Below, in pieces: positions 1 to 36,538 of a stretch of DNA of 36,538 nt. Made by a program: the position numbers and the translations under genes. Location: positions 1 through 36,538 of IMG/VR virus record IMGVR_UViG_2654587996_000001. One strand, 5' to 3'. Below the pieces are notes generated by a model. The model searched no databases, was not told the origin of the DNA, and saw nothing but the letters and a program-made list of their open reading frames with translations. Numbering within the stretch: position 1 is the first letter of the stretch; every line of letters begins with the position of its first letter. Source of the DNA: a virus (Duplodnaviria > Heunggongvirae > Uroviricota > Caudoviricetes).

Positions 1-735
1 TCAACTCTCTTTCAAACCGGTTTTAACTGTCTGTGGTTTTGGGTAAGGCTGGACTTTGAATAGCTTTGTGTTGAGGCGTTTTCTGGCTCTCTTGTTCAGA
101 AACCGGATGTAACGAAACTGGCGGAATTTATGAACACTGGCTCTGTCGATATTAGCCCTCAGATGTTCACCTCGCTGTCCTCCTCGTTTGATGGTATTCC
201 TGCAAATCTCGTGATACCACTCGCCATCAAGTTCATAGAATGTTGATTCATGGCTGCCAACATAATCAAAATTGCTTGCCTGATACACGACACCAAGACA
301 GCCACAACGCTCATCTGCAAACGACTGAACCCACTGCACCTGCGGATAAAGTTGCCTGATGAGTTTGAGTGCGTAACTGATTGCCCTTGATTCGGAGTTT
401 CTCGGCATACAGTCATGCATCCATAGCCGGTTAAGCTCCATGTATTCACGGTTCTGCGTACCCGTTACGATGCGCGCTCCGCTGTTTGGATTAAGGGCAT
501 AACCCCATTGCATTACGCCAACCAGCTCCCGTTCTGAAAATATCCCCAGATGAAGGTAGGAGTTATTTACGAAACGGTGGCTGTAATGTTTATTGACGAT
601 GACCAGTCGGGCCAGCCAACAACTTATTGTCTCAACACGCAATTCACGGGAGCCATAACCAACGATATTGTCGTTATAGCGAATAAGTTCAGGCGTGCTG
701 ATGATACGGGATGTAACTTGCTTTTTGTTCCCCAC
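1..735 (-). CDS. mom: Mom-like DNA modification protein; proposed GTG start at 735 (244 aa); the frame stays open upstream to 1086
   Basis: Lies immediately downstream of and overlapping a Com-like zinc finger gene, as in Mu. GTG at 735-733 is preceded by AAGGAAA about 9 nt upstream. No ATG exists in this frame between 895 and 513. Stop TGA at 1-3. Assignment is by position, not by recognised Mom sequence. Confidence 0.5.
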
Positions 736-889
736 GACAGGATTTCCTTGTGTATGTGGGGTGCTCTGTGGCGCTCTGTGATGTGATTTGATTGAGGGTT
801 TTACAGCGCGGGCATTTGACTTCCAGATAGCTGAAACTGGCCCGTGCCAGTAGCTTATTGCAGTGTCGGCACCGTATGTTTCGATACAT
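689..889 (-). CDS. com: Com-like zinc-finger translational activator of mom
   Basis: Translation [14 protein letters not shown]...VKCPRCK has the C-x2-C...C-x2-C arrangement and CPRCK motif recalled from phage Mu Com; about 66 aa; 3' end overlaps the proposed mom start. Confidence 0.7.
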
Positions 890-938
890 GGCCGCATAAC
901 CTCCTGCTTTGTTGTTGTTGTTGATGTTTGCTTCATCA

Positions 939-963
939 AATCGATCGACAAAAACGATCGATT
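939..963. promoter_or_regulatory. Perfect 9-bp inverted repeat AATCGATCG-N7-CGATCGATT carrying two GATC sites, upstream of com-mom; a third GATC at 1026-1029
   Basis: Read directly from the sequence. Sits 50-140 bp upstream of the com start on the minus strand. In Mu the mom promoter is controlled by Dam methylation of clustered upstream GATC sites. Confidence 0.5.
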
Positions 964-1103
964 CGATTTGTTTAATTGATACAACAAATAACACGAAATG
1001 TCATTAGCGAAAATTTTATGAGGTTGATCACTAATTTTAAAAGGTGCAGTAACGCATAAGTGATGAATGATTGTACATTTGAACACCGCAAAGCAAACAA
1101 CTC

Positions 1104-1129
1104 AACTAATTAATAAAAATCAATTAGTT
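1104..1129. promoter_or_regulatory. AT-rich palindrome AACTAATT-N10-AATTAGTT in the divergent region between com and the plus-strand ORF at 1153
   Basis: Perfect 8-bp inverted repeat read from the sequence, about 25 bp upstream of the GAGAGG ribosome-binding site of ORF 1153-1455; operator-like. Confidence 0.3.
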
Positions 1130-1152
1130 ATCTGCTGTCGTGAGAGGCTGTG

Positions 1153-1455
1153 ATGAACAATCATGTAACGACGATAAATCAAAACACAATTGAAAACGCG
1201 GAAATTTATAATGATTATTTTTCCGATTATTCAGATGTCTGCAAATACAGTTCGAGTGCGGGAAAGTTCATATGCTTCAATTTTTTTATTAAATCTTATG
1301 TCTTTCCTCCTAAGGAAGAGGATGGATGTACTCCACCTCCTGAAATCAGGTTGCACCGTGTTGCCTCTGTCTCAATGATGGAGCAACAGGCTGATGAGTT
1401 ATATAGCATTCTGGGAGCGCTTCTGCACAAGGATGAGGCTAAGGTGGGTCAATGA
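1153..1455 (+). CDS. Hypothetical protein (100 aa), AT-rich
   Basis: ATG at 1153 preceded by GAGAGG at 5-nt spacing; low GC compared with the phage backbone; no recognisable motif. Confidence 0.4.
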   Translation: MNNHVTTINQNTIENAEIYNDYFSDYSDVCKYSSSAGKFICFNFFIKSYVFPPKEEDGCTPPPEIRLHRVASVSMMEQQADELYSILGALLHKDEAKVGQ

Positions 1456-1582
1456 TGCCCTGTTATGTTTCAGTTATACTCGGGGATTAAGCTGGATTGC
1501 CTGCTGTTATATTCCCGGAATACTCAATGCTATTCAGCGCTTTACATATCAGAAAAATAGCAAGGATGTTTTCATTAGAATT

Positions 1583-1608
1583 AAACCGGCAGGAGAAACT
1601 GCCGGTTT
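1583..1608. terminator. Intrinsic terminator-like hairpin between convergent small genes
   Basis: Perfect 10-bp stem AAACCGGCAG / CTGCCGGTTT with 6-nt loop; T-rich flank; begins 7 nt after the stop of the minus-strand ORF 1615-1869. Confidence 0.55.
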
Positions 1609-1614
1609 GTATTG

Positions 1615-1869
1615 TTACATCATAGTACTGTCAGTTCCGGACTGAGCCGGTTCTGGTTGTTCTGGCTGTGCGTCGGTTTTCGGCTCATTATCAGCATCAC
1701 TGGCCGCAGCAGCTGGCCCAAGAAGTTTTGCCAGCACCTCATCAACGTAAGTGTCGATTTGTGCCTCAAAATCCTTGCGGACCTGCGCTTTCAGTAATTT
1801 ATTTACTTCACCTGAATACAGCGCCTGTTTGACCAGGTCTTCAGTGACAGTGCCTTTAATCTCTGGCAT
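1615..1869 (-). CDS. Hypothetical acidic protein (84 aa)
   Basis: Strong ribosome-binding site AAGGAGG 6 nt upstream of the ATG; AT-rich; acidic Pro/Glu-rich C-terminus. Confidence 0.55.
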   Translation of the reverse strand: MPEIKGTVTEDLVKQALYSGEVNKLLKAQVRKDFEAQIDTYVDEVLAKLLGPAAAASDADNEPKTDAQPEQPEPAQSGTDSTMM

Positions 1870-1904
1870 GTATATCCTCCTTATGCGGGAATACAGCCCT
1901 GCAA

Positions 1905-2087
1905 TCAGGGCTGGGTCGGGTCTTTTGGGAGCGGGGTTGCCGTTGTTGTTTTACTGAGTTTTTCCGCTGCTGCGTCATCAATTTTACGGCGGACATAATT
2001 TCGGATAGCTTTGTAGCCACCACTCACCAGATATAACGCGCAGACCACCGAGCAGAAATATAATAAAATAAGCTGTATAAATGTCAT
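1905..2087 (-). CDS. Small membrane protein (60 aa), one N-terminal transmembrane helix then a basic tail
   Basis: Hydrophobic N-terminus IQLILLYFCSVVCALYLV; GGAG 7 nt upstream of the ATG; 35-nt spacing to the next ORF suggests co-transcription. Confidence 0.5.
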   Translation of the reverse strand: MTFIQLILLYFCSVVCALYLVSGGYKAIRNYVRRKIDDAAAEKLSKTTTATPLPKDPTQP

Positions 2088-2223
2088 TATTCATCTCCAT
2101 TATTAATATGGTGTTGACATAGTTAATACCTGTTGGTTAAAAAGGCGTCCTGCATTTTTTGCTTTGGACATAACGACTTTTGCCGCCGGTTTCCTTGTTT
2201 TCCCTTTCCAGGCGGCATTTTTT

Positions 2224-4302
2224 TTATCCTGCTGACGGGGTATTCACTTCCACCACAATGCTGTCAATCAGCACCGGATATGTCGCAGCGCTGGTGATAT
2301 CAGTCACCCGTAATTTGTCTGCCGTAAACGTGCCAACCGGAGACTGAGACAGCATGAATGGTGTCCCGTCCTTACCATCAATGACCGGCGTCACCTCAAT
2401 ACTGTTGTTACCGGCAAAACGGAAGCCCAGCGTATGCCATTCGTTATTAAATGCACCGAATGACCCCAGTTTCGTGTTTTGCGCCGTATTGCCCTTGTGG
2501 TACATCACGTTAAGGTCTGTGGCATCGCTCTGAACGTAAAACGATGCCAGCAGGTTATGACCGGCATTACCTTCCAGAGTAACCCCTTGCGGCAGGGCAG
2601 AAACCGGCCAGTACAGCGCCATCGCGTACTGATTAGCCGTAAGCGTACCATCAACCTTAAACCGGCAACTGACAAGGCCACCTTTACCCAGCAGGTCCGC
2701 ACCATTACCGGCATCATGCTCAAGGTACCAGGAGGATTTGCCTGTTTCCTTGGTCAGTTTCATGGCCTTACCACTACCTGCTCCGGCATCATCCACGATT
2801 TCAGCCTTGCCACCTCCCGCGCTCCAGCCCTGTGGTGACAGCTGACCTTCTGATTCAGATGTCCGGTAAGCAAACAGCGTGCTCATCGTCGTGGTGTCAG
2901 CCGGTGGAGTGGACGGTGTATCCGGCGATGGTGTTGATGGGGAGTCAGGTGATGGCTTCTCATCCGGTGGTGTCACGGTCTGCCCGCCCATCAGTTCAGC
3001 CGTGCGCCCTGCATGGAGCAGAATAGCGGAGGCCAGACGGTCTGAAATAATGCCCCTGCGTGCCCATGAGCTGAAATGGCTGTCACGCTGTGTCGAGACA
3101 AAACTGCCCTGAGTACGGGATGCTGCACCATAATACCCGACAGCCACAATATCCGGGTCTTCCGCCGGAGCATTTGTTGGCGTGTTTGCGCCGTTTTCAT
3201 CTGTCAGGAACGGTACAAAGAAAATATTCTGTGCTTCCTTGCCTTTGTAGCCACCGTATACTGTCTCATATTTATCGGTGCCAGCGTTTTTCCAGTAATA
3301 CGTGGTATCACCGCAAATCCACGGCACCGTGGTGGCATTTCCGCTCACACACTGTGCAGCAAGTGAGGACAGGTCAGTCCTGAACTGCTGAACCATGGCC
3401 GTGAATAAACCGTTATGCTGCTGACTGCCTGAAGCAAGGTCTGCCTCGCCCTGCATCCATACCACCGCCAGCAGCCTGTTTTTCGGGTTCTTCGCCAGCG
3501 CCGCTTTTGTCCGGCTGACCATGTCCTGATACAGGGGTTTACCGGCACCCCAGCGTGCAGCGTCAGCGGATGCGCCACTGGCCTCACTGAATGTACCGTC
3601 GGCACCGGTGGTGAATGCAGAACCACCACGACAGCAGGGCACCAGAAGTATCCCTGCATTCTGCGGGATATACGACAGCAGCTTTTTGGCAATATGCAGC
3701 CCCTGACTGACACAGCCATACTGCCCCTTATTCAGGTCCGCTTTCGGATGATTAACACCGCTCATATCCTGTACATCATGCAGACAATGGTCAGCCGGAA
3801 TCACATCATTGTATGCACAGGCGTCTCCACCCGGCGTCACTGTACTGCGGCGTGCCAGCTGTTTAATGCGCGGGTCCGGGCGGTCATAAGAGTCCGGTAA
3901 CGGAAGCCCCTCACCGTAGGCCATGCCGTTGGACTGTCCGGCAAGCACAACCACGTAGTAATACTCCGGCTCTCTGTTGCCGCCACTCACACTGCCGGAA
4001 GACCCGGCGTTATCCGGTGCATTCCAGTCCGATGGGGTGAGCGTTCCGGCCACATCCGACGTAATGGGAATGACGCCGGTCACGCCAGAGCTGGTAATTT
4101 CTGCACTGGGGGTACCGGACACAGGCATTACCCATAATGGCTCTTTCGTGCTGAAGCGGATCACACAATCTGCAAAGGTGATCCCGCCTTTATTACCCGA
4201 AGGCCGGAAAGGGCTTTCAATAAATGCCACAGTGCCACCGGCAACCTTGACTGAAAACTCTCCGGGCATGGCGGAGAGCATTTTCCACTGGGAGTCTGAC
4301 AT
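2224..4302 (-). CDS. SGNH/SASA-family esterase domain protein with Pro/Ser/Thr linker and C-terminal beta-rich domain; candidate virion-associated receptor-modifying enzyme
   Basis: Motif VVVLAGQSNGMAYG (GQSN nucleophile block of sialate O-acetylesterase-like SGNH hydrolases); linker PPDEKPSPDSPSTPSPDTPSTPPADTTT; no N-terminal signal peptide; located just past the tail fiber genes. Confidence 0.7.
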   Translation of the reverse strand: MSDSQWKMLSAMPGEFSVKVAGGTVAFIESPFRPSGNKGGITFADCVIRFSTKEPLWVMPVSGTPSAEITSSGVTGVIPITSDVAGTLTPSDWNAPDNAGSSGSVSGGNREPEYYYVVVLAGQSNGMAYGEGLPLPDSYDRPDPRIKQLARRSTVTPGGDACAYNDVIPADHCLHDVQDMSGVNHPKADLNKGQYGCVSQGLHIAKKLLSYIPQNAGILLVPCCRGGSAFTTGADGTFSEASGASADAARWGAGKPLYQDMVSRTKAALAKNPKNRLLAVVWMQGEADLASGSQQHNGLFTAMVQQFRTDLSSLAAQCVSGNATTVPWICGDTTYYWKNAGTDKYETVYGGYKGKEAQNIFFVPFLTDENGANTPTNAPAEDPDIVAVGYYGAASRTQGSFVSTQRDSHFSSWARRGIISDRLASAILLHAGRTAELMGGQTVTPPDEKPSPDSPSTPSPDTPSTPPADTTTMSTLFAYRTSESEGQLSPQGWSAGGGKAEIVDDAGAGSGKAMKLTKETGKSSWYLEHDAGNGADLLGKGGLVSCRFKVDGTLTANQYAMALYWPVSALPQGVTLEGNAGHNLLASFYVQSDATDLNVMYHKGNTAQNTKLGSFGAFNNEWHTLGFRFAGNNSIEVTPVIDGKDGTPFMLSQSPVGTFTADKLRVTDITSAATYPVLIDSIVVEVNTPSAG

Positions 4303-4555
4303 CGTCTTTTCTGCCTGTTTCTGAATTAAACAGAGTCAGAATAACAACCGCTGATAAATATGTGTTTTGCGGAAATTCAAAAAAAGCGTCACGGTACTTT
4401 TTATGACGGAGCCGGTGAGGCAGGAACATAACGACAAAGGATGGACAGGCCAATATGATAACCGCATATTACCGGCTTATAATTTAATTAACGATTCATG
4501 ACGCGGCGGTCAGCACCTGAAAATATGCGTTATTTCAGACAACCCTTGCCTGTAT

Positions 4556-5128
4556 ATGGCGATAGTATTATTCCTGTTTTTATCATTGATTCACATGGTG
4601 ATGTTTATGCAACTGATTAATGTTAAACGATATTACCCGGAACACAAACCCTATGGTAATGATGTACAGTATTTTCAGAGTGAAGATGGTAAGGATTTCT
4701 ACGAGTCCCTGCCATTATTCACAAAAAAATATAAACTTTGCATAACACCAGACAGCGGCGTTATCTGCTCAATATCACAGGACGCCTCGGCACTGTATCC
4801 TGCGGGTTTTTCCGTGGTTGAGGCCGATGAACTCCCTGAAGGCACGGATATTTCAGGAAACTGGACGTTTGATAATGGCGTTATCTCCCGGCTTCCGGTT
4901 AACTACACCAAAAAAGCGGAAGCACAGCGCCAGTCATATCTTAATCAGGCATATGAAAAAATTAATGACTGGAGAACTGAGCTACAACTGGGCACGATCA
5001 GTGATGAAGACAGAGCAGCACTTACCCAATGGATGGCATACATCAGTCAGGTGAAGAAAATGGAACTACCCGCCATTAAAACAGAAGCTGAATTTAACGC
5101 CATTAAATGGCCTGAGCTGCCACAGTAA
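4556..5128 (+). CDS. Tail fiber assembly (chaperone) protein; real start probably internal, around 4595-4607
   Basis: C-terminal region DWRTELQLGTISDEDRAALTQWMAYISQVKKM resembles conserved Tfa/U-family C-termini. On the opposite strand from all other structural genes. Confidence 0.65.
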   Translation: MAIVLFLFLSLIHMVMFMQLINVKRYYPEHKPYGNDVQYFQSEDGKDFYESLPLFTKKYKLCITPDSGVICSISQDASALYPAGFSVVEADELPEGTDISGNWTFDNGVISRLPVNYTKKAEAQRQSYLNQAYEKINDWRTELQLGTISDEDRAALTQWMAYISQVKKMELPAIKTEAEFNAIKWPELPQ

Positions 5129-5131
5129 TAA

Positions 5132-5151
5132 AGAAGGCCGGAAGGCCTTCT
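5132..5151. terminator. Bidirectional terminator hairpin between convergent tail fiber and Tfa genes
   Basis: Perfect 8-bp stem AGAAGGCC / GGCCTTCT with GGAA loop, placed between the Tfa stop (5126-5128) and the tail fiber stop (5160-5162); U-rich flanks on both strands. Confidence 0.6.
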
Positions 5152-5159
5152 GAATATCA

Positions 5160-6041
5160 TTATATACTTGCAGCCGTCACCCATGCTCCATTTAACAGAT
5201 ACTGCAACGGCCGGTAATACACGCCGCCGACGTTATCTGCCGTATTCTTACCGACATCCTGTACTTTAATTCCGGTAAGAACATTGCCGCCCCCCAGATT
5301 CAGATCCCAGCTTTCCCATGTTCCGGGCATATGTGCGGTCACAGACCCCAGCCTGATACCCGTCACTGTTCCTGATGAGATAGTGATATCCTGCGTTCCG
5401 TCAAAGGCGACACCATTGATTTTGTGGGCGTTGGCCAGCCTGTTTGCTGCAACAGCCGTGCCGTTCGATGGCAGGGCATTCGCGGCCTTGTTTACCGTAT
5501 CCCGTAAACCGACGTTATCGATAAAAGCCCCTTTATCCGGAATGTCTGCGCCGTTCTGCTCCCTGCGCAGGTAATGGTTATCACCTTCGCTCCTGCTGTA
5601 AACATCCAGATTATTACGGGCGGTCCCCTTATTCTCCAGATCGGCCAGATTCTGATCCTTTGCCAGTGCATTAACGTCACCGGGACCAAGACTGTTTTTT
5701 GTGGCAAGCGTCCCCAGACCAAGATAACCACGGGCCAGACGCTGGGCCTCCGCACCGGCATCAGCAATTTCTTTCAGGTTATTTTTCCGGGAAAAGGCAT
5801 TCGCAGCGATAATGGCTTTAATGGACAGCGTAAGCTGGTTTAACTGCGCCTTATCCGGCTGGATATTGGCTTCAGCCAGAATATTCAGCAGTTCGGCCTG
5901 GAGAATATTCAGCCAGTCCTGACCGATCCAGCTGATACCTTTCTGTCCGTCACCTTCGGTAAACCAGGTGGTGGTATTACTCTGCGCCGGTGCCAGCGCA
6001 GGCATATTCGCCACGCCGGAATTATTATCAACATGAAACAT
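5160..6041 (-). CDS. Tail fiber protein (S-like), 293 aa
   Basis: Position after the baseplate genes; N-terminal [13 protein letters not shown] segment typical of tail fiber N-termini; Gly/Asn-rich C-terminal part. Confidence 0.65.
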
Positions 6042-6601
6042 CAGATATTCTCCTCTTCATGGCTGTTTGCATAGACGTAAATAAACGTCTGCCACGCGGG
6101 CTTATAACGGTTCAGAATACATTCCAGCGCGCCGCCTTCATAAATACGCAGCGGGGTGAGGATATCATCCAGCACATTCATATGCCGGTAGCCGGTTTCG
6201 CTGTTAATCGTGACAATACTGACCCACTGCGAATCCGGTGAGGGCTGAATATCTATTTCATAACCAAACTCCGCCGCAAACCGGATATAAAATTCACGGT
6301 TCAGCGAGGGCTTCATCCGGTATTTATTTCCGGCATAACGCTGTCGCTCCGTGAGGGTGGCTCCGGCCATATCACATTCAGGAAGGCCCAGATAACGCTC
6401 CCAGTCTTCCAGCAGCAGGCGCGACGAGTCAGGGAATCGCTCGGCAAACAGCTGTTTTCCCGTCCAGGACACACGCGCGGTGGAATGACTGAGGCCCAGA
6501 CATAGCGATGCCAGTACAGATGACGGACGCTTGTCCCATGCCAGCCCGTCAGGCAGCAACTGCAACAGGGCGCGCTGATGCGGGGTGAGGGTTACAGCCA
6601 T
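6041..6601 (-). CDS. Baseplate/tail protein, Mu gp48-like
   Basis: Size and position between the J-like baseplate protein and the tail fiber; start overlaps the upstream stop. Confidence 0.5.
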
Positions 6602-7674
6602 GTGATTTCTCCCACCGTCAGCAGCTCACTGTCGCCCGCCTGAACCGACGTCAGCGGACTGCGCACTTCAAAATCCTCCAGATTTTTCACCCCCGCCACG
6701 GCACGCCAGAAAGACGACGGCAGAACCAGACCGCCGGGCCGGGATTCGTTGTATAACAGGTCGGTCAGCGCCTGTTTTACGGCCGCCTGATTCTCCGGTG
6801 TTTTCGGGATGATCCTGATGCTGAAGGGCACCGGCTTATTGGTCAGTTTAAACACGGTCACCGTCGGCCCCAGCGGCTGCCCGACTGGCTGGCCGGTCGC
6901 CGGATCATCATGACTGCGGATATAATCCGCCACCCGCTGAACATCACCGTCACCGGGGAAAATATCCGGGTTATTATCCTGAACGAACGTTACCCCCACG
7001 CTGCCCGCCTGCGGCCATTCCGGGCGGCACCATGCCCGCGTCACGCCAGGCACTTCACGCGCCCAGCGTTCGAAATCATACTGCGTGCCGCCGGACGGCG
7101 GATTCTGCACCCGGAAAACCAGACGGGAAAGCAGCTCCGGTACGGTTTCCACGTCTGCACCACCGGTGATCCCCGTGCCGGTCACCGTGGCCGTCTGGTT
7201 GATCCCCGCCTGCGGTGTGATAAAGGTCAGTTTTGTCCCTGCCGGGGCATTTCCCGCACGACCGGCACTTTCGGCCTCCACACTGACATTCAGCGTACCG
7301 GCCTTGCCGGTCAGGGAGGCGGTGATGCGGTAAACCACGCCGTCACTGCGCTGGAGAAGCACACCTTCCGTGATCCCCGCATCCGTCGTCAGCATCAGTT
7401 GTACCGGCCCGTCCCCCCGTGAAGCGGGTTTACGCATGACGCCCCAGAACGCGCAGTGCTTCAGCAGTTCGGCTTCATCAGCTTCTGTCGGGATGATCTG
7501 ACGCGCAATCCAGGCCAGATGCTCATGCTCCTGTGCAGACAACCCCGCCTGGGCATAAGCAATGGCATTCAGGGTGGTTTCACTCACGCCCGGTTGCGAA
7601 CCGGGCAGGCGCTGGCTGATATCCTGCTGTGTCTGCGTGATTAACTGTGCCAGCGGTAAAGGCTGATAAGGCAT
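6592..7674 (-). CDS. Baseplate J-like protein (Mu gp47-like)
   Basis: 360 aa, syntenic position; overlapping start and stop with neighbours. Confidence 0.6.
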   Translation of the reverse strand: MPYQPLPLAQLITQTQQDISQRLPGSQPGVSETTLNAIAYAQAGLSAQEHEHLAWIARQIIPTEADEAELLKHCAFWGVMRKPASRGDGPVQLMLTTDAGITEGVLLQRSDGVVYRITASLTGKAGTLNVSVEAESAGRAGNAPAGTKLTFITPQAGINQTATVTGTGITGGADVETVPELLSRLVFRVQNPPSGGTQYDFERWAREVPGVTRAWCRPEWPQAGSVGVTFVQDNNPDIFPGDGDVQRVADYIRSHDDPATGQPVGQPLGPTVTVFKLTNKPVPFSIRIIPKTPENQAAVKQALTDLLYNESRPGGLVLPSSFWRAVAGVKNLEDFEVRSPLTSVQAGDSELLTVGEITWL

Positions 7675-8111
7675 TACTCCCCCTTAAGATCAGCGTAAAA
7701 AATCATGGGTCTCACCGAACCATCGGGCAGGGTTATATGCACCGAAAGCGCCAGTCGCGCGTGTCCCACGCGTTCTGCATAACACGCCACGGATGACGCC
7801 ACGCCATCCTGACTGAGCCAGCCCAGCGCCTCATCTGCGTAAGCACGGGCACGGCGTACCACGGAGGCCAGCGTTTTTTCCCGGCTGAGAAGCCACAGAC
7901 GGGAGCCAATGGGGCGCGGGCGAAAACTGTCTCCCCACCATCCCCGGCGGTCACGCGTACCGTCAGGGATTTCATCCGATGCCAGTGCCCGGCGGTCAGT
8001 AAACAGGGATATCAGCACAGCCGTCAGCAGACTGTCATCCGTCAGCAGGTCAGCACCGTTGAGTTGCAGCGAACCGCATCCCTGATCCCACACAATTGCA
8101 ATATCAGCCAT
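7674..8111 (-). CDS. Baseplate wedge protein (Mu gp46 / gpW-gp25-like); start taken at internal ATG 8111
   Basis: ATG at 8111 gives the typical 8-nt overlap with the upstream gene stop (8104-8106); about 146 aa; the longer ORF to 8255 would overlap the upstream gene extensively. Confidence 0.5.
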   Translation of the reverse strand: MADIAIVWDQGCGSLQLNGADLLTDDSLLTAVLISLFTDRRALASDEIPDGTRDRRGWWGDSFRPRPIGSRLWLLSREKTLASVVRRARAYADEALGWLSQDGVASSVACYAERVGHARLALSVHITLPDGSVRPMIFYADLKGE

Positions 8112-34217: not shown

Positions 34218-36305
34218 TCAGGCCAGCGGATCATTTTCTTTTAATTTCGCTTCCAGCAGCTGCAATCCCCGCTGGAAGTTACGCTCGTATTCGTCATCAG
34301 GTTCATCATCAACGGCAGGTCTCTGAACGGCCACCGTATTACCTACCGGGCGGTATATGTTTTCCAGCCATGGCTCCTGTGGCTTGTGCTCCAGCACGTT
34401 GACAACCTCATCCTCGGCATCACGGATTTTTTCCTCTGCGCGTTTACGCATACCTTTAAGGCGCTGCTGCTGTTTGTAGTATTCCGCGCTGACCGGGAAG
34501 GCTTCGCGTTTATTGCCGTCCCATACCGCCTCGCAAATCACACTGCCATCCAGGCGACGCACGGTAATTCGCTCAGCATCATGAATGTCATAGCTGATAA
34601 GCACCTTACGACCATGCTCGTCACGCAGCTCGGGCGCGTAGTAAATATTATTCAGCCAGCGTATTTCACAGCGTCTTACAGGGCGCTCCACCATCGGCCG
34701 GAACATATCCCGCAGCTCAACATCGGACAGCCATTCAATTTCCGTGTCCTCTTCCGCCAGGCGTTTTTTTCTGAACTCCGCCGGGCTGTAATGTTTACCG
34801 TTCGGCTTCATGGGTAATTCATCGTGCGGCCGGTTGTTGTACCACTCAACGCCGTCACGAATGGCATCAATCAGTTCAGACCAGGACGGTAAATCACGCA
34901 TCGCTGACTGCTGCCGGGCGTTCAGCCGCTTGCCCTGTTGCAGGGCACTGAATGCCGAGCGTAAATCGCGGTTGGTTTTACGTAACGTCTCGCGATCTGC
35001 ACCTTTCCCGAAATAGGTGCGGTATTTACGGGCTATGCGCATCGGTAATGTGCGGTTAAGCCGTTCGATAATGCCCCGTCCCTGCGGGTTACCGGCAATC
35101 CCGGTCGGGTGATTAATCCCCAGTCGCGGCAGTATCCCCACAATCTCCTTATCCAGGACGTCGGCGGTTTCCCCCGAGCCATTATCCGAGTAATACAGAA
35201 ACGGTTTGCCGTGATGTCGAATACCGTGCTGTATGGCACCGGCTACGGCGAAAACATTTTCAGCCAGGTCAAGGCTCCAGCCCACCACAAAGCGCGTGCC
35301 GCCGTCGATAACAAAGGTCACTTCCGGTGCAAATGGCCGCCCGTGAACCGGGTGTGCGCATTTCAGCTTCATGCCGTGACCGTCACCAATCCAGACATAA
35401 TTCACCGGCATTTTTGACCAGTCGCGGCGAGTGAACCCCTCAAGCTGGCGGTATTCACTGCCGGTAACCCGGCCTTTTTGTTTCACCACTTCCGGCAGTT
35501 TCTTCATTGCGCGGCGAATGGTGTCATAAGAGGGCATGATATCGAGCATATAAGGCTCATCAGCGTGCCGGTGCTGCCATTCAGCGACAAAATCCTCGTA
35601 AGCCTCGGTCATTGGTCGGCCGTTTGACTGGCGATACTGCGCCAGAAACTCGGGCAGCCAGTTAATATCTTCGGCTTTTATTTCCTGACGTTTACCCGGT
35701 GCCAGTAAAAGCAGGCGTTCAGCGGCGTTCTGCGCCTTGTTAAAGGCCGCAATCCAGCGTTTCAGCGTGATTTCACTCAACGCGCGGCTGTTTCCCTTTT
35801 TGGCGTTCGCCGTCTCAACCATTGCCACAATGCGCTCGTCCAGTTGTGATCGTGCCAGGCTGTTAACGAGGAACCGGATAGCCTTAGCGCAACTAAAGCC
35901 GGGTTGTTGCGCGATTTTCAGCGCCTCGCTGACGATCGCTATTCGTGCCTCTGCCACTTTACGTTGGTTTTCAGTCAGGGCATTGAGGCGTTCGACCATC
36001 AGTTGGGGTGATCCGCGATATGCCTCCACCGCATCAACCACGGCAGGTGAGCGTCTGGCCTTTGTCACCACCGGAGCCGGTGATTCATCGGCTTTTTGCG
36101 TCATCAGTTGCAGGGCGTAGCGTTCACGTAATGCCTGCTGCGTCACTTCAGGTAAACAGTCGATGCTGTATTCAAAACCTTTAGTGCCTTCCTGGCGGCG
36201 TCTGCTGGTTTCGCTGGTTGCATACTTCCTGATTGAATAGCGGACGCCTTGCTCCGTTCCCGGCATTCCCGGTAATCCAACCAGCTCTTTAACTGAAGCA
36301 AACAT
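34218..36305 (-). CDS. A: DDE transposase MuA-like
   Basis: 695 aa; catalytic-core region WIGDGHGMKL...SDNGSGE; position between ner and B. Confidence 0.85.
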   Translation of the reverse strand: MFASVKELVGLPGMPGTEQGVRYSIRKYATSETSRRRQEGTKGFEYSIDCLPEVTQQALRERYALQLMTQKADESPAPVVTKARRSPAVVDAVEAYRGSPQLMVERLNALTENQRKVAEARIAIVSEALKIAQQPGFSCAKAIRFLVNSLARSQLDERIVAMVETANAKKGNSRALSEITLKRWIAAFNKAQNAAERLLLLAPGKRQEIKAEDINWLPEFLAQYRQSNGRPMTEAYEDFVAEWQHRHADEPYMLDIMPSYDTIRRAMKKLPEVVKQKGRVTGSEYRQLEGFTRRDWSKMPVNYVWIGDGHGMKLKCAHPVHGRPFAPEVTFVIDGGTRFVVGWSLDLAENVFAVAGAIQHGIRHHGKPFLYYSDNGSGETADVLDKEIVGILPRLGINHPTGIAGNPQGRGIIERLNRTLPMRIARKYRTYFGKGADRETLRKTNRDLRSAFSALQQGKRLNARQQSAMRDLPSWSELIDAIRDGVEWYNNRPHDELPMKPNGKHYSPAEFRKKRLAEEDTEIEWLSDVELRDMFRPMVERPVRRCEIRWLNNIYYAPELRDEHGRKVLISYDIHDAERITVRRLDGSVICEAVWDGNKREAFPVSAEYYKQQQRLKGMRKRAEEKIRDAEDEVVNVLEHKPQEPWLENIYRPVGNTVAVQRPAVDDEPDDEYERNFQRGLQLLEAKLKENDPLA

Positions 36306-36307
36306 AA

Positions 36308-36538
36308 TTACGCGACCTTACGAATGTAGCGGCTGGGCCAAATCTCCTCGGGTGGCACACCCAGGCATTCCGCAATAATCCCCTCATACTTGGGAACATG
36401 ACGGTATACCGCGTTGTACAGGTTGTTCTGACCTACACCAGCTTTACGTGCCAGCGCCCTCATACTTCCTTCTCTGGCTCTGACTTCCCCCAAGATTCTT
36501 TGAGGATGCCAATCAGGCTTAACTTCATTTCTCGCCAT
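36308..36538 (-). CDS. ner: Ner-like DNA-binding regulator (76 aa), complete; its ATG is the last codon of the window
   Basis: Sequence ends ...AECLGVPPEEIWPSRYIRK, resembling the Ner/Nlp family C-terminus (IWPSRY); 2-nt gap to the transposase start. Confidence 0.75.
   Translation of the reverse strand: MARNEVKPDWHPQRILGEVRAREGSMRALARKAGVGQNNLYNAVYRHVPKYEGIIAECLGVPPEEIWPSRYIRKVA

Follow-up and report, generated by a model that had tools for sequence, protein, structure and literature searches.

We analysed a 36,538-nucleotide stretch of DNA from a tailed virus of the Caudoviricetes (IMG/VR record IMGVR_UViG_2654587996_000001, positions 1 to 36,538; hereafter the window), in which a tail-fibre gene and a tail-fibre assembly gene converge. 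The tail-fibre gene, S (5160–6041, minus strand), encodes 293 amino acids and joins a constant part, Sc, to Sv, the only variable arm left. The assembly gene, tfa (4607–5128, plus strand), encodes a 173-amino-acid chaperone like U of phage Mu. Their stop codons are separated by a hairpin, and an AT-rich gap lies on the 5′ side of tfa. As described below, this locus is, with high probability, a deletion-locked derivative of a host-range switch of the Mu G/Gin type.

Results

The identity of the two genes was supported by family matches. By sequence, the tfa product belongs to the Pfam family Caudo_TAP (PF02413; 6.1e-20), scoring 72.2 bits where the gathering cutoff is 22.1. It also matched PHROG 136, "tail fiber assembly protein" (7.7e-56), and, among solved structures, Mu U (PDB 5YVQ_B, 3.5e-17). 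The S product matched PHROG 1833 at 3e-139 and the PDB chains 8JU3_A (1.4e-46) and 5YVQ_A (5.4e-44); its residues 1–198 were 47% identical to Mu S, with the similarity stopping at the annotated boundary of the G segment of Mu. An earlier sequence-only reading, in which a Tfa-like plus-strand gene faces the 3′ end of a minus-strand tail-fibre gene at 5160–6041, was thus confirmed. The end of tfa at 5128 given there also held, whereas its start at 4556 did not: the true start is almost certainly the ATG at 4607, because all annotated relatives use this start (522 bp) and the similarity to the Tfa of phage POP15 begins at residue 1 of this form. The motif GGTGA lies 5 nt on its 5′ side. The gene does not lie directly downstream of a fibre gene that it would serve, in a position for co-transcription; it is on the opposite strand and convergent with S.

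The perfect 8-bp hairpin described between the two genes was also found, at 5132–5151 between the convergent stop codons (AGAAGGCC-GGAA-GGCCTTCT, with GGAA as the loop), with a folding energy of about −15 kcal/mol and z = −3.8 on both strands, and none of 200 shuffled sequences was as stable. Because the T-rich tail is present on the minus strand only (TTATTACTGT), the hairpin probably resembles a rho-independent terminator of the S transcript. The same hairpin is carried by a related prophage in Escherichia coli HH35.

The arm Sv corresponds to the tip domain, the last ~76 amino acids of S (5160–5388, minus strand), which differs among relatives, where it is swapped as a cassette, and which resembles the C-terminal 66 amino acids of Mu S′. 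Next to it, 5389–5529 (minus strand) matches one arm of a ~140-bp inverted repeat that forms the shared start of both fibre arms in relatives (relative L002, 5634–5495, opposite strand, 81% identity), and its partner is deleted in the window.

Complete E. coli genomes were found to hold prophages ~91% identical to the window over positions 1–7700, in two forms. One is collinear with the window (strains M3, M1, M18, S1-CAM-01-A, and JE86). The other, the gin+ form (HH35, STEC299, DETEC-S792, FORC strains, and many more), is longer by ~840 bp between tfa and the esterase gene that precedes the gap, and the additional DNA encodes a 190-amino-acid "recombinase family protein" on the minus strand and, on the plus strand adjoining the 5′ side of tfa, a "phage tail protein, missing N-terminus". 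Over 184 amino acids, the HH35 recombinase and Mu Gin share 74% identity. An inverted repeat of ~145 bp (87% identical) joins the middle of the HH35 fibre gene to the start of the truncated tail-protein open reading frame (ORF), and a crossover site lies at each of its outer edges, reading TTATCGATAACG TC GGTTTACGGGAA on the S side and TTCCTGAAAACC TC GGTTTACGGGAA on the gin side. The Mu site gixL, TTATCCAAAACC TC GGTTTACAGGAA (TTATCCAAAACCTCGGTTTACAGGAA), has the same codon position and frame as the sites of the relatives. The layout of the relatives can thus be read as a miniature G segment, in the order Sc / gix / Sv-stop, hairpin, <tfa, <S′v / gix / gin, with a second arm, S′v, and a single tfa oriented with it. 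About 235 genomes matched a gin/S′v probe, compared with 6 that carry the scar described below.

Inversion was observed in these relatives, which possess both arms, each fused in frame to Sc. In silico inversion at the TC core of HH35 produced an in-frame Sc–S′v fibre of 296 amino acids, and a 590-bp probe for the flipped junction was matched in a single piece in 6 E. coli genomes. The inversion switch works in the relatives, since the predicted junction occurs in these genomes at 99.3–100% identity. FORC_043 carries gp48, an 891-bp fibre gene, and tfa on one strand, followed by the recombinase, and FORC_029 and FORC_043 have the same prophage (99.4% identical) with the 1.35-kb segment inverted. 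For the HH35-type allele, 18 genomes showed the unflipped gin/S′v junction and 6 the flipped one, and some genomes with multiple copies showed both. Flipped relatives restore the usual S–tfa order, and the co-oriented partner of tfa in this order, S′v, is deleted in the window.

In the annotation of these relatives, RefSeq calls the S′v arm either a pseudogene ("phage tail protein, missing N-terminus") or a short protein (L002 5498–5872, L004 3853–4068, and L005 3698–4006), small ORFs are annotated across the gix/gin-promoter region, and the Sv arm is unannotated in flipped genomes. A tail-protein pseudogene "missing N-terminus" beside a recombinase can accordingly be understood by annotators as the second arm of a working switch.

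The AT-rich gap of the window (GC content of 39–41% over 4300–4700 versus 53–60% in the flanks) is a deletion scar and not a plain spacer. On its left, positions 4389–4456 (minus strand) hold the 3′ relic of gin, a stop codon and 22 codons that read HIGLSILCRYVPASPAPS*KVP* and include an in-frame stop, where the intact HH35 counterpart reads DIGLSTLYRYFPASPAPSPKVP*; this DNA is part of a 206-bp alignment that is 94% identical to the 3′ end of HH35 gin. On its right, positions 4459–4520 (plus strand) hold the 3′ relic of S′v, 62 nt that read TAYYR and are then frameshifted by deletions of 4 and 2 bp, and that align to the last 68 nt of STEC299 S′v, which reads VTAYYRPIQYLINGSWRTAGST*. The junction lies at 4456–4459, where 873 bp are absent relative to STEC299 (L004 3128–4000). 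In pairwise alignments, the left side (94% to HH35) stops inside the 3′ end of the recombinase gene, and the right side (93% to STEC299) begins within the final 68 nt of the ORF of the truncated tail protein. The relics are followed by the former S′v–tfa intergenic leader (4521–4606, plus strand), which is 93% identical to STEC299 (L004 4069–4154) and is present upstream of tfa in 79 E. coli genomes, so that the "intergenic" 4303–4606 largely consists of gene relics (4389–4520) and this old leader.

The sequence-only reading had pointed out that the window has no serine recombinase ORF. This was borne out by tblastn with the HH35 recombinase over the 36.5-kb window, which detected a C-terminal fragment at ~4392–4478 only (E 6.5e-6); yet the gap holds pieces of gin and of the second arm. 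The relatives have the full 190-amino-acid gene, and the window has the gin stump only. A Gin-mediated origin of the deletion was considered and rejected, as neither breakpoint is gix-like and there is no clear microhomology.

A search for inverted repeats or gix-like sites flanking 4303–5160 had been proposed as a check, and a single gix-like site was found. A degenerate consensus of the sites of the relatives had exactly one match in the window, at 5499–5524 (ATCCCGTAAACCGACGTTATCGATAA; plus strand), with 1 mismatch and 0 matches expected by chance. This orphan gix-like site, ATCCCGTAAACC GA CGTTATCGATAA, lies inside S at codons 173–181, in the same position and frame as Mu gixL and the S-side site of HH35. 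Matches to the generic core AAACCNNGGTTT in the rest of the window were at chance level, and a search for inverted repeats over window positions 1000–7000 revealed nothing beyond chance-level pairs of 13–27 nt. Thus, the window has one crossover site where the relatives have two inverted ones, and Sc and Sv are intact while S′v is reduced to 62 frameshifted nt. The homologous Sc, the crossover site at the Mu position, and the stumps of gin and S′v are the marks of descent that it retains.

Among 5,426 complete E. coli genomes, 6 carried the scar junction, which was also detected in 7 IMG/VR contigs; in a collection with one genome per species, the junction had no match. Among the 10 locked copies examined, the scar was exactly 304 bp and the orientation was the same in every one, and tfa was intact with its 173 codons in 9 of the 10 that cover the whole gene. 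In the E. coli genomes, the right end of the locked prophage adjoins flgL, citF, bcsA, or a type I restriction R gene. Because these are at least four different insertion sites, the phage transposed or infected after the deletion, and we regard the locked form as a living lineage that is still spreading. At least two Sv cassettes occur among locked copies, in fibre genes of 882 and 912 bp. Between the window and L018 (IMGVR_UViG_3300012089_000011), the scar and the first ~300 bp of tfa show no difference, whereas the tfa 3′ end and Sv diverge; tip cassettes are accordingly still exchanged by homologous recombination.

Side by side with this exchange, the Sv tip cassette was seen to travel with the last ~170 bp of the convergent tfa (window 4900–5388 versus L018 and L009). 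The tfa 3′ end of the window is essentially identical to that of HH35, which has the same Sv type, and that of S1-CAM matches DETEC-S792. Physical linkage accounts for this co-travel, and it would at the same time preserve the pairing of the Sv tip with the Tfa C-terminus.

Discussion

The highly probable origin of the locus can be outlined as follows. The ancestor carried a small Mu-G-type segment with the layout of the present relatives, in which a Gin-type serine invertase swapped the last ~115 codons of the fibre gene, so that one orientation gave an Sc–Sv fibre and the other an Sc–S′v fibre followed by tfa in cis. A single illegitimate deletion of ~873 bp then took gin codons 1 to ~168, the gin-proximal gix, and S′v except for its last 62 nt. 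In Mu, the recombinational enhancer (sis) is located in the 5′ part of gin, and by analogy an enhancer in the gin 5′ end would also have been lost. The result is a locked Sc–Sv orientation with a single host-range specificity, in which the Sv arm is now permanently expressed and tfa is left backwards, convergent on S across the hairpin. The proposal of a locked remnant of a G-like segment, one of three that had been put forward for this layout, is thereby supported by relatives that carry gin and S′v at the position of the scar and by the persistence of both stumps. One point weighs against this account: no exact ancestor was found, the left flank of the scar being nearer to HH35 and the right flank nearer to STEC299.

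A separate question is whether the stranded tfa is still used. The Sv fibre may still use Tfa, with tfa still expressed and needed, possibly from a promoter-like site in the scar; we put this forward tentatively, with a chance that falls somewhat short of even. If the Sv fibre uses Tfa, tfa would need its own transcription, and an independently transcribed chaperone, another of the earlier proposals, is compatible with an origin as a locked remnant. The competing explanation accepts the same locked-relic origin and holds that tfa is silent, functionless, and not yet decayed, with the Sc–Sv fibre folding without Tfa; this is plausible, although we would stop short of calling it probable.

Several observations speak for continued use and against a silent gene. 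Both arms in all relatives end in (V)YYRP(L/V/I)Q…NG.W.T..S(I/V), and the same tip motif is found at the C-terminus of Mu S′ (8JU3), so the Sv tip shares its motif with the S′v arms and with Mu S′. Similar fibre tips are present in phages POP15 and 19-1-2, each followed by a Caudo_TAP gene in cis, so other phages combine a fibre tip of this kind with a cis Tfa, and the POP15 Tfa is 33% identical to the window Tfa (E 8e-25). Furthermore, tfa has stayed intact in 9 of the 10 locked copies while the neighbouring stumps carry a stop and frameshifts. A sigma-70-like site, ATGATA-17-TATAAT (4455–4483, plus strand, 10/12 matches), straddles the deletion junction and is a speculative candidate for a new tfa promoter; the 4-bp loss relative to STEC299 gave rise to its TATAAT, which every locked copy retains.

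The following points weigh against this use of tfa. Promoter-like sites occur in the scar region at chance frequency (4 found, 3.5 expected), and a plus-strand promoter-like site upstream of tfa was not found in the two unlocked relatives scanned, in keeping with a silent gene. The ratio of nonsynonymous to synonymous divergence (dN/dS) of tfa among locked copies was 0.11–0.16. Its synonymous divergence was 0.14–0.34, however, 3–6 times that of the adjacent relic DNA (0.04–0.06), and its 3′ third is recombinant, travelling with the Sv cassette, so that the gene is a mosaic. Because of this excess divergence and mosaicism, the dN/dS cannot be assigned to the period after the deletion; low dN/dS as proof of tfa function was rejected, and the mark of purifying selection may have arisen while the gene was in unlocked phages. 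This confounding of the selection test by recombination leaves room for a silent tfa, as do the position of tfa antisense to the late operon and behind a terminator-like hairpin and the predominance among relatives of the Sv-ON orientation, in which tfa is antisense (18 versus 6), suggesting that Sv fibres work in this state. In addition, the tfa of one locked copy, that of JE86-ST05, is frameshifted, and five further genes of this prophage are annotated as frameshifted.

A more specific proposal for continued use is that the one tfa between convergent paralogous arms serves both of them, being transcribed independently when Sv is ON, and that the junction together with the 4-bp loss made the sigma-70 promoter at 4455–4483. 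We consider this unlikely. If true, it would represent the regulatory rescue of a stranded chaperone after the loss of a phase-variation switch.

A third earlier proposal was inversion driven in trans, that is, a segment that an invertase of the Gin/Pin/Cin type, encoded by the host chromosome or by another prophage in the same cell, could still flip. Invertases of these types are common in E. coli, JE86-ST05 has both locked and gin+ copies, and the site at 5499–5524 differs from the S-side site of the relatives at one outer position only. Nevertheless, inversion needs two inverted sites, and the window has one in 36.5 kb, with neither the repeat partner nor the alternative arm, of which 62 nt are left; the gin 5′ region, which holds the enhancer in Mu, is deleted, and all 10 locked copies share one orientation and the 304-bp scar. 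With a single gix-like site and no second arm, an invertase in trans would have nothing to act on, and we conclude that none should be able to flip the segment of the window; inversion in trans is thus excluded but for a very small residual chance. As a separate matter, JE86-ST05 (NZ_AP022815.1) carries its locked and gin+ copies on one chromosome, at ~690.5 kb (L008) and ~812.9 kb, where the orphan gix could meet Gin in trans and recombine with the sites of the other prophage.

It is likewise very improbable that the convergent layout is original and was never invertible, with tfa independently transcribed and the relatives having gained gin and S′v later. Such a history would suit a layout that is stably inherited in a lineage still transposing, with tfa intact in most locked copies and a promoter-like site on its 5′ side. 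It does not suit the truncated and decayed ends of gin and S′v in the gap, which can be leftovers of complete genes only; the similarity of 4389–4520 to gin and S′v, at 93–94% DNA identity, is not spurious. Nor does it suit the gix site retained in S at the Mu position or the far greater frequency of the gin+ layout. Homologues with the same fixed convergent arrangement, which were to have made it a stable layout and not a relic, do exist among the collinear prophages, but all of them carry the deletion scar, so that a scar-free stable layout was not what they revealed. The arrangement can thus be regarded as both a relic and stably inherited. Finally, inverted repeats and population heterogeneity at invertible segments can mislead assemblers, but an error of assembly or binning, for instance a collapsed repeat, has a negligible chance of explaining the missing invertase, as the same junction, which lies in unique sequence outside repeats, recurs in 7 IMG/VR contigs and in 6 complete E. 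coli genomes that are independent of one another.

Compared with the G segment of Mu, the locus has the same position after gp47/gp48 and before com/mom, a homologous Sc (47%, 198 amino acids), and a crossover site whose codon position is the same and whose core is nearly identical (…AAACC TC GGTTTAC.GGAA ACGGTAAAC); the invertase of the relatives shares 74% identity with Gin, Tfa and Mu U are homologous, and the Sv tip is like the Mu S′ tip. In contrast, the segment of the relatives is ~1.35 kb instead of 3 kb, its arms have ~115 instead of ~330 codons, and it has a single tfa, on the S′v arm, where Mu has U and U′. The window differs further in being without gin and having one gix site and one arm.

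The P1 C segment with Cin and the p15B Min system also exchange the 3′ ends of tail-fibre genes by serine invertases and include tfa genes; judged by description and not by sequence, they differ in their symmetric or multi-arm organisation and their intact recombinase. Fixed or degenerate tail-fibre inversion modules with a reversed tfa are known from E. coli cryptic prophages (e14 with its Pin/P segment, Rac, and Qin). In SfMu, a change in one inverted repeat has been proposed to reduce or abolish G inversion (PMC4406740). The present locus resembles the cryptic prophages and SfMu in being a remnant of a tail-fibre/tfa inversion module with tfa reversed; unlike them, it has a defined 873-bp deletion that removes the invertase itself, and, unlike the cryptic prophages, its carrier is apparently an otherwise complete prophage that reaches new insertion sites. 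Programmed inversions have tail-fibre genes among their recognised classes of target (PMC9881135), and a description of a single-tfa segment or of a gin deletion was not found in the literature searched. The locus in the window is itself an ordinary and well-explained relic; what is mildly new is the compact family segment with a single tfa and the gin-deleted lineage that is still mobile.

The odd gene orientation is thus explained, with exact breakpoints, as the trace that a lost host-range switch has left, and the locus shows that a Mu-like phage can lose Gin and half its receptor repertoire and yet still spread. For annotation, stumps should be looked for wherever a tfa is reversed and no recombinase is present. 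Of wider interest is how one Tfa, encoded in the opposite orientation, could serve the Sv arm in these E. coli Mu-like prophages.

Genomic setting of the locus

By its gene order, the window is the right end of a transposable prophage of the Mu type, in reversed reading direction. On the minus strand, baseplate gp47, gp48, S, the former gin position, an esterase cassette, com, and mom follow one another, and the gp46-gp47-gp48-S … com-mom synteny is combined with varied chromosomal insertion sites. Baseplate J/gp47 is at 7674–6592 and Mu gp48/YmfQ at 6601–6041 (Pfam Phage_Mu_Gp48, 8.6e-21), both on the minus strand. Long minus-strand ORFs extend to one of 695 amino acids at the far end of the window, and the sole sizeable plus-strand gene in the left 8 kb is tfa.

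The esterase cassette (1615–4302, minus strand) lies between the former gin position and com/mom and was seen in all relatives examined. It comprises the SASA-esterase/DUF6645 gene at 4302–2224 (692 amino acids; SASA, sialate O-acetylesterase, 4e-14; DUF6645, 2.7e-68) and then DUF1378 and DUF826 genes. We take it to resemble the NanS-p esterase region of Stx/lambdoid phages, and a portion of the esterase gene shares 77% identity with a "carbohydrate binding protein" of Escherichia phage ASU11.

At the near end (1–890, minus strand), the window begins at the mom stop codon, with com at ~689–889; at the far end (36300–36538), it stops at what we read as the start codon of a ner-like gene. The repressor and both phage ends fall outside the window. 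A megablast search of a phage collection returned two Stx-phage records with an inserted Mu-like phage, both unannotated. A second plus-strand ORF, at 1150–1455 between com and DUF826, had no Pfam match; at this position, a 261-bp hypothetical protein is annotated in relatives, and M18 has a different ORF of 528 bp.

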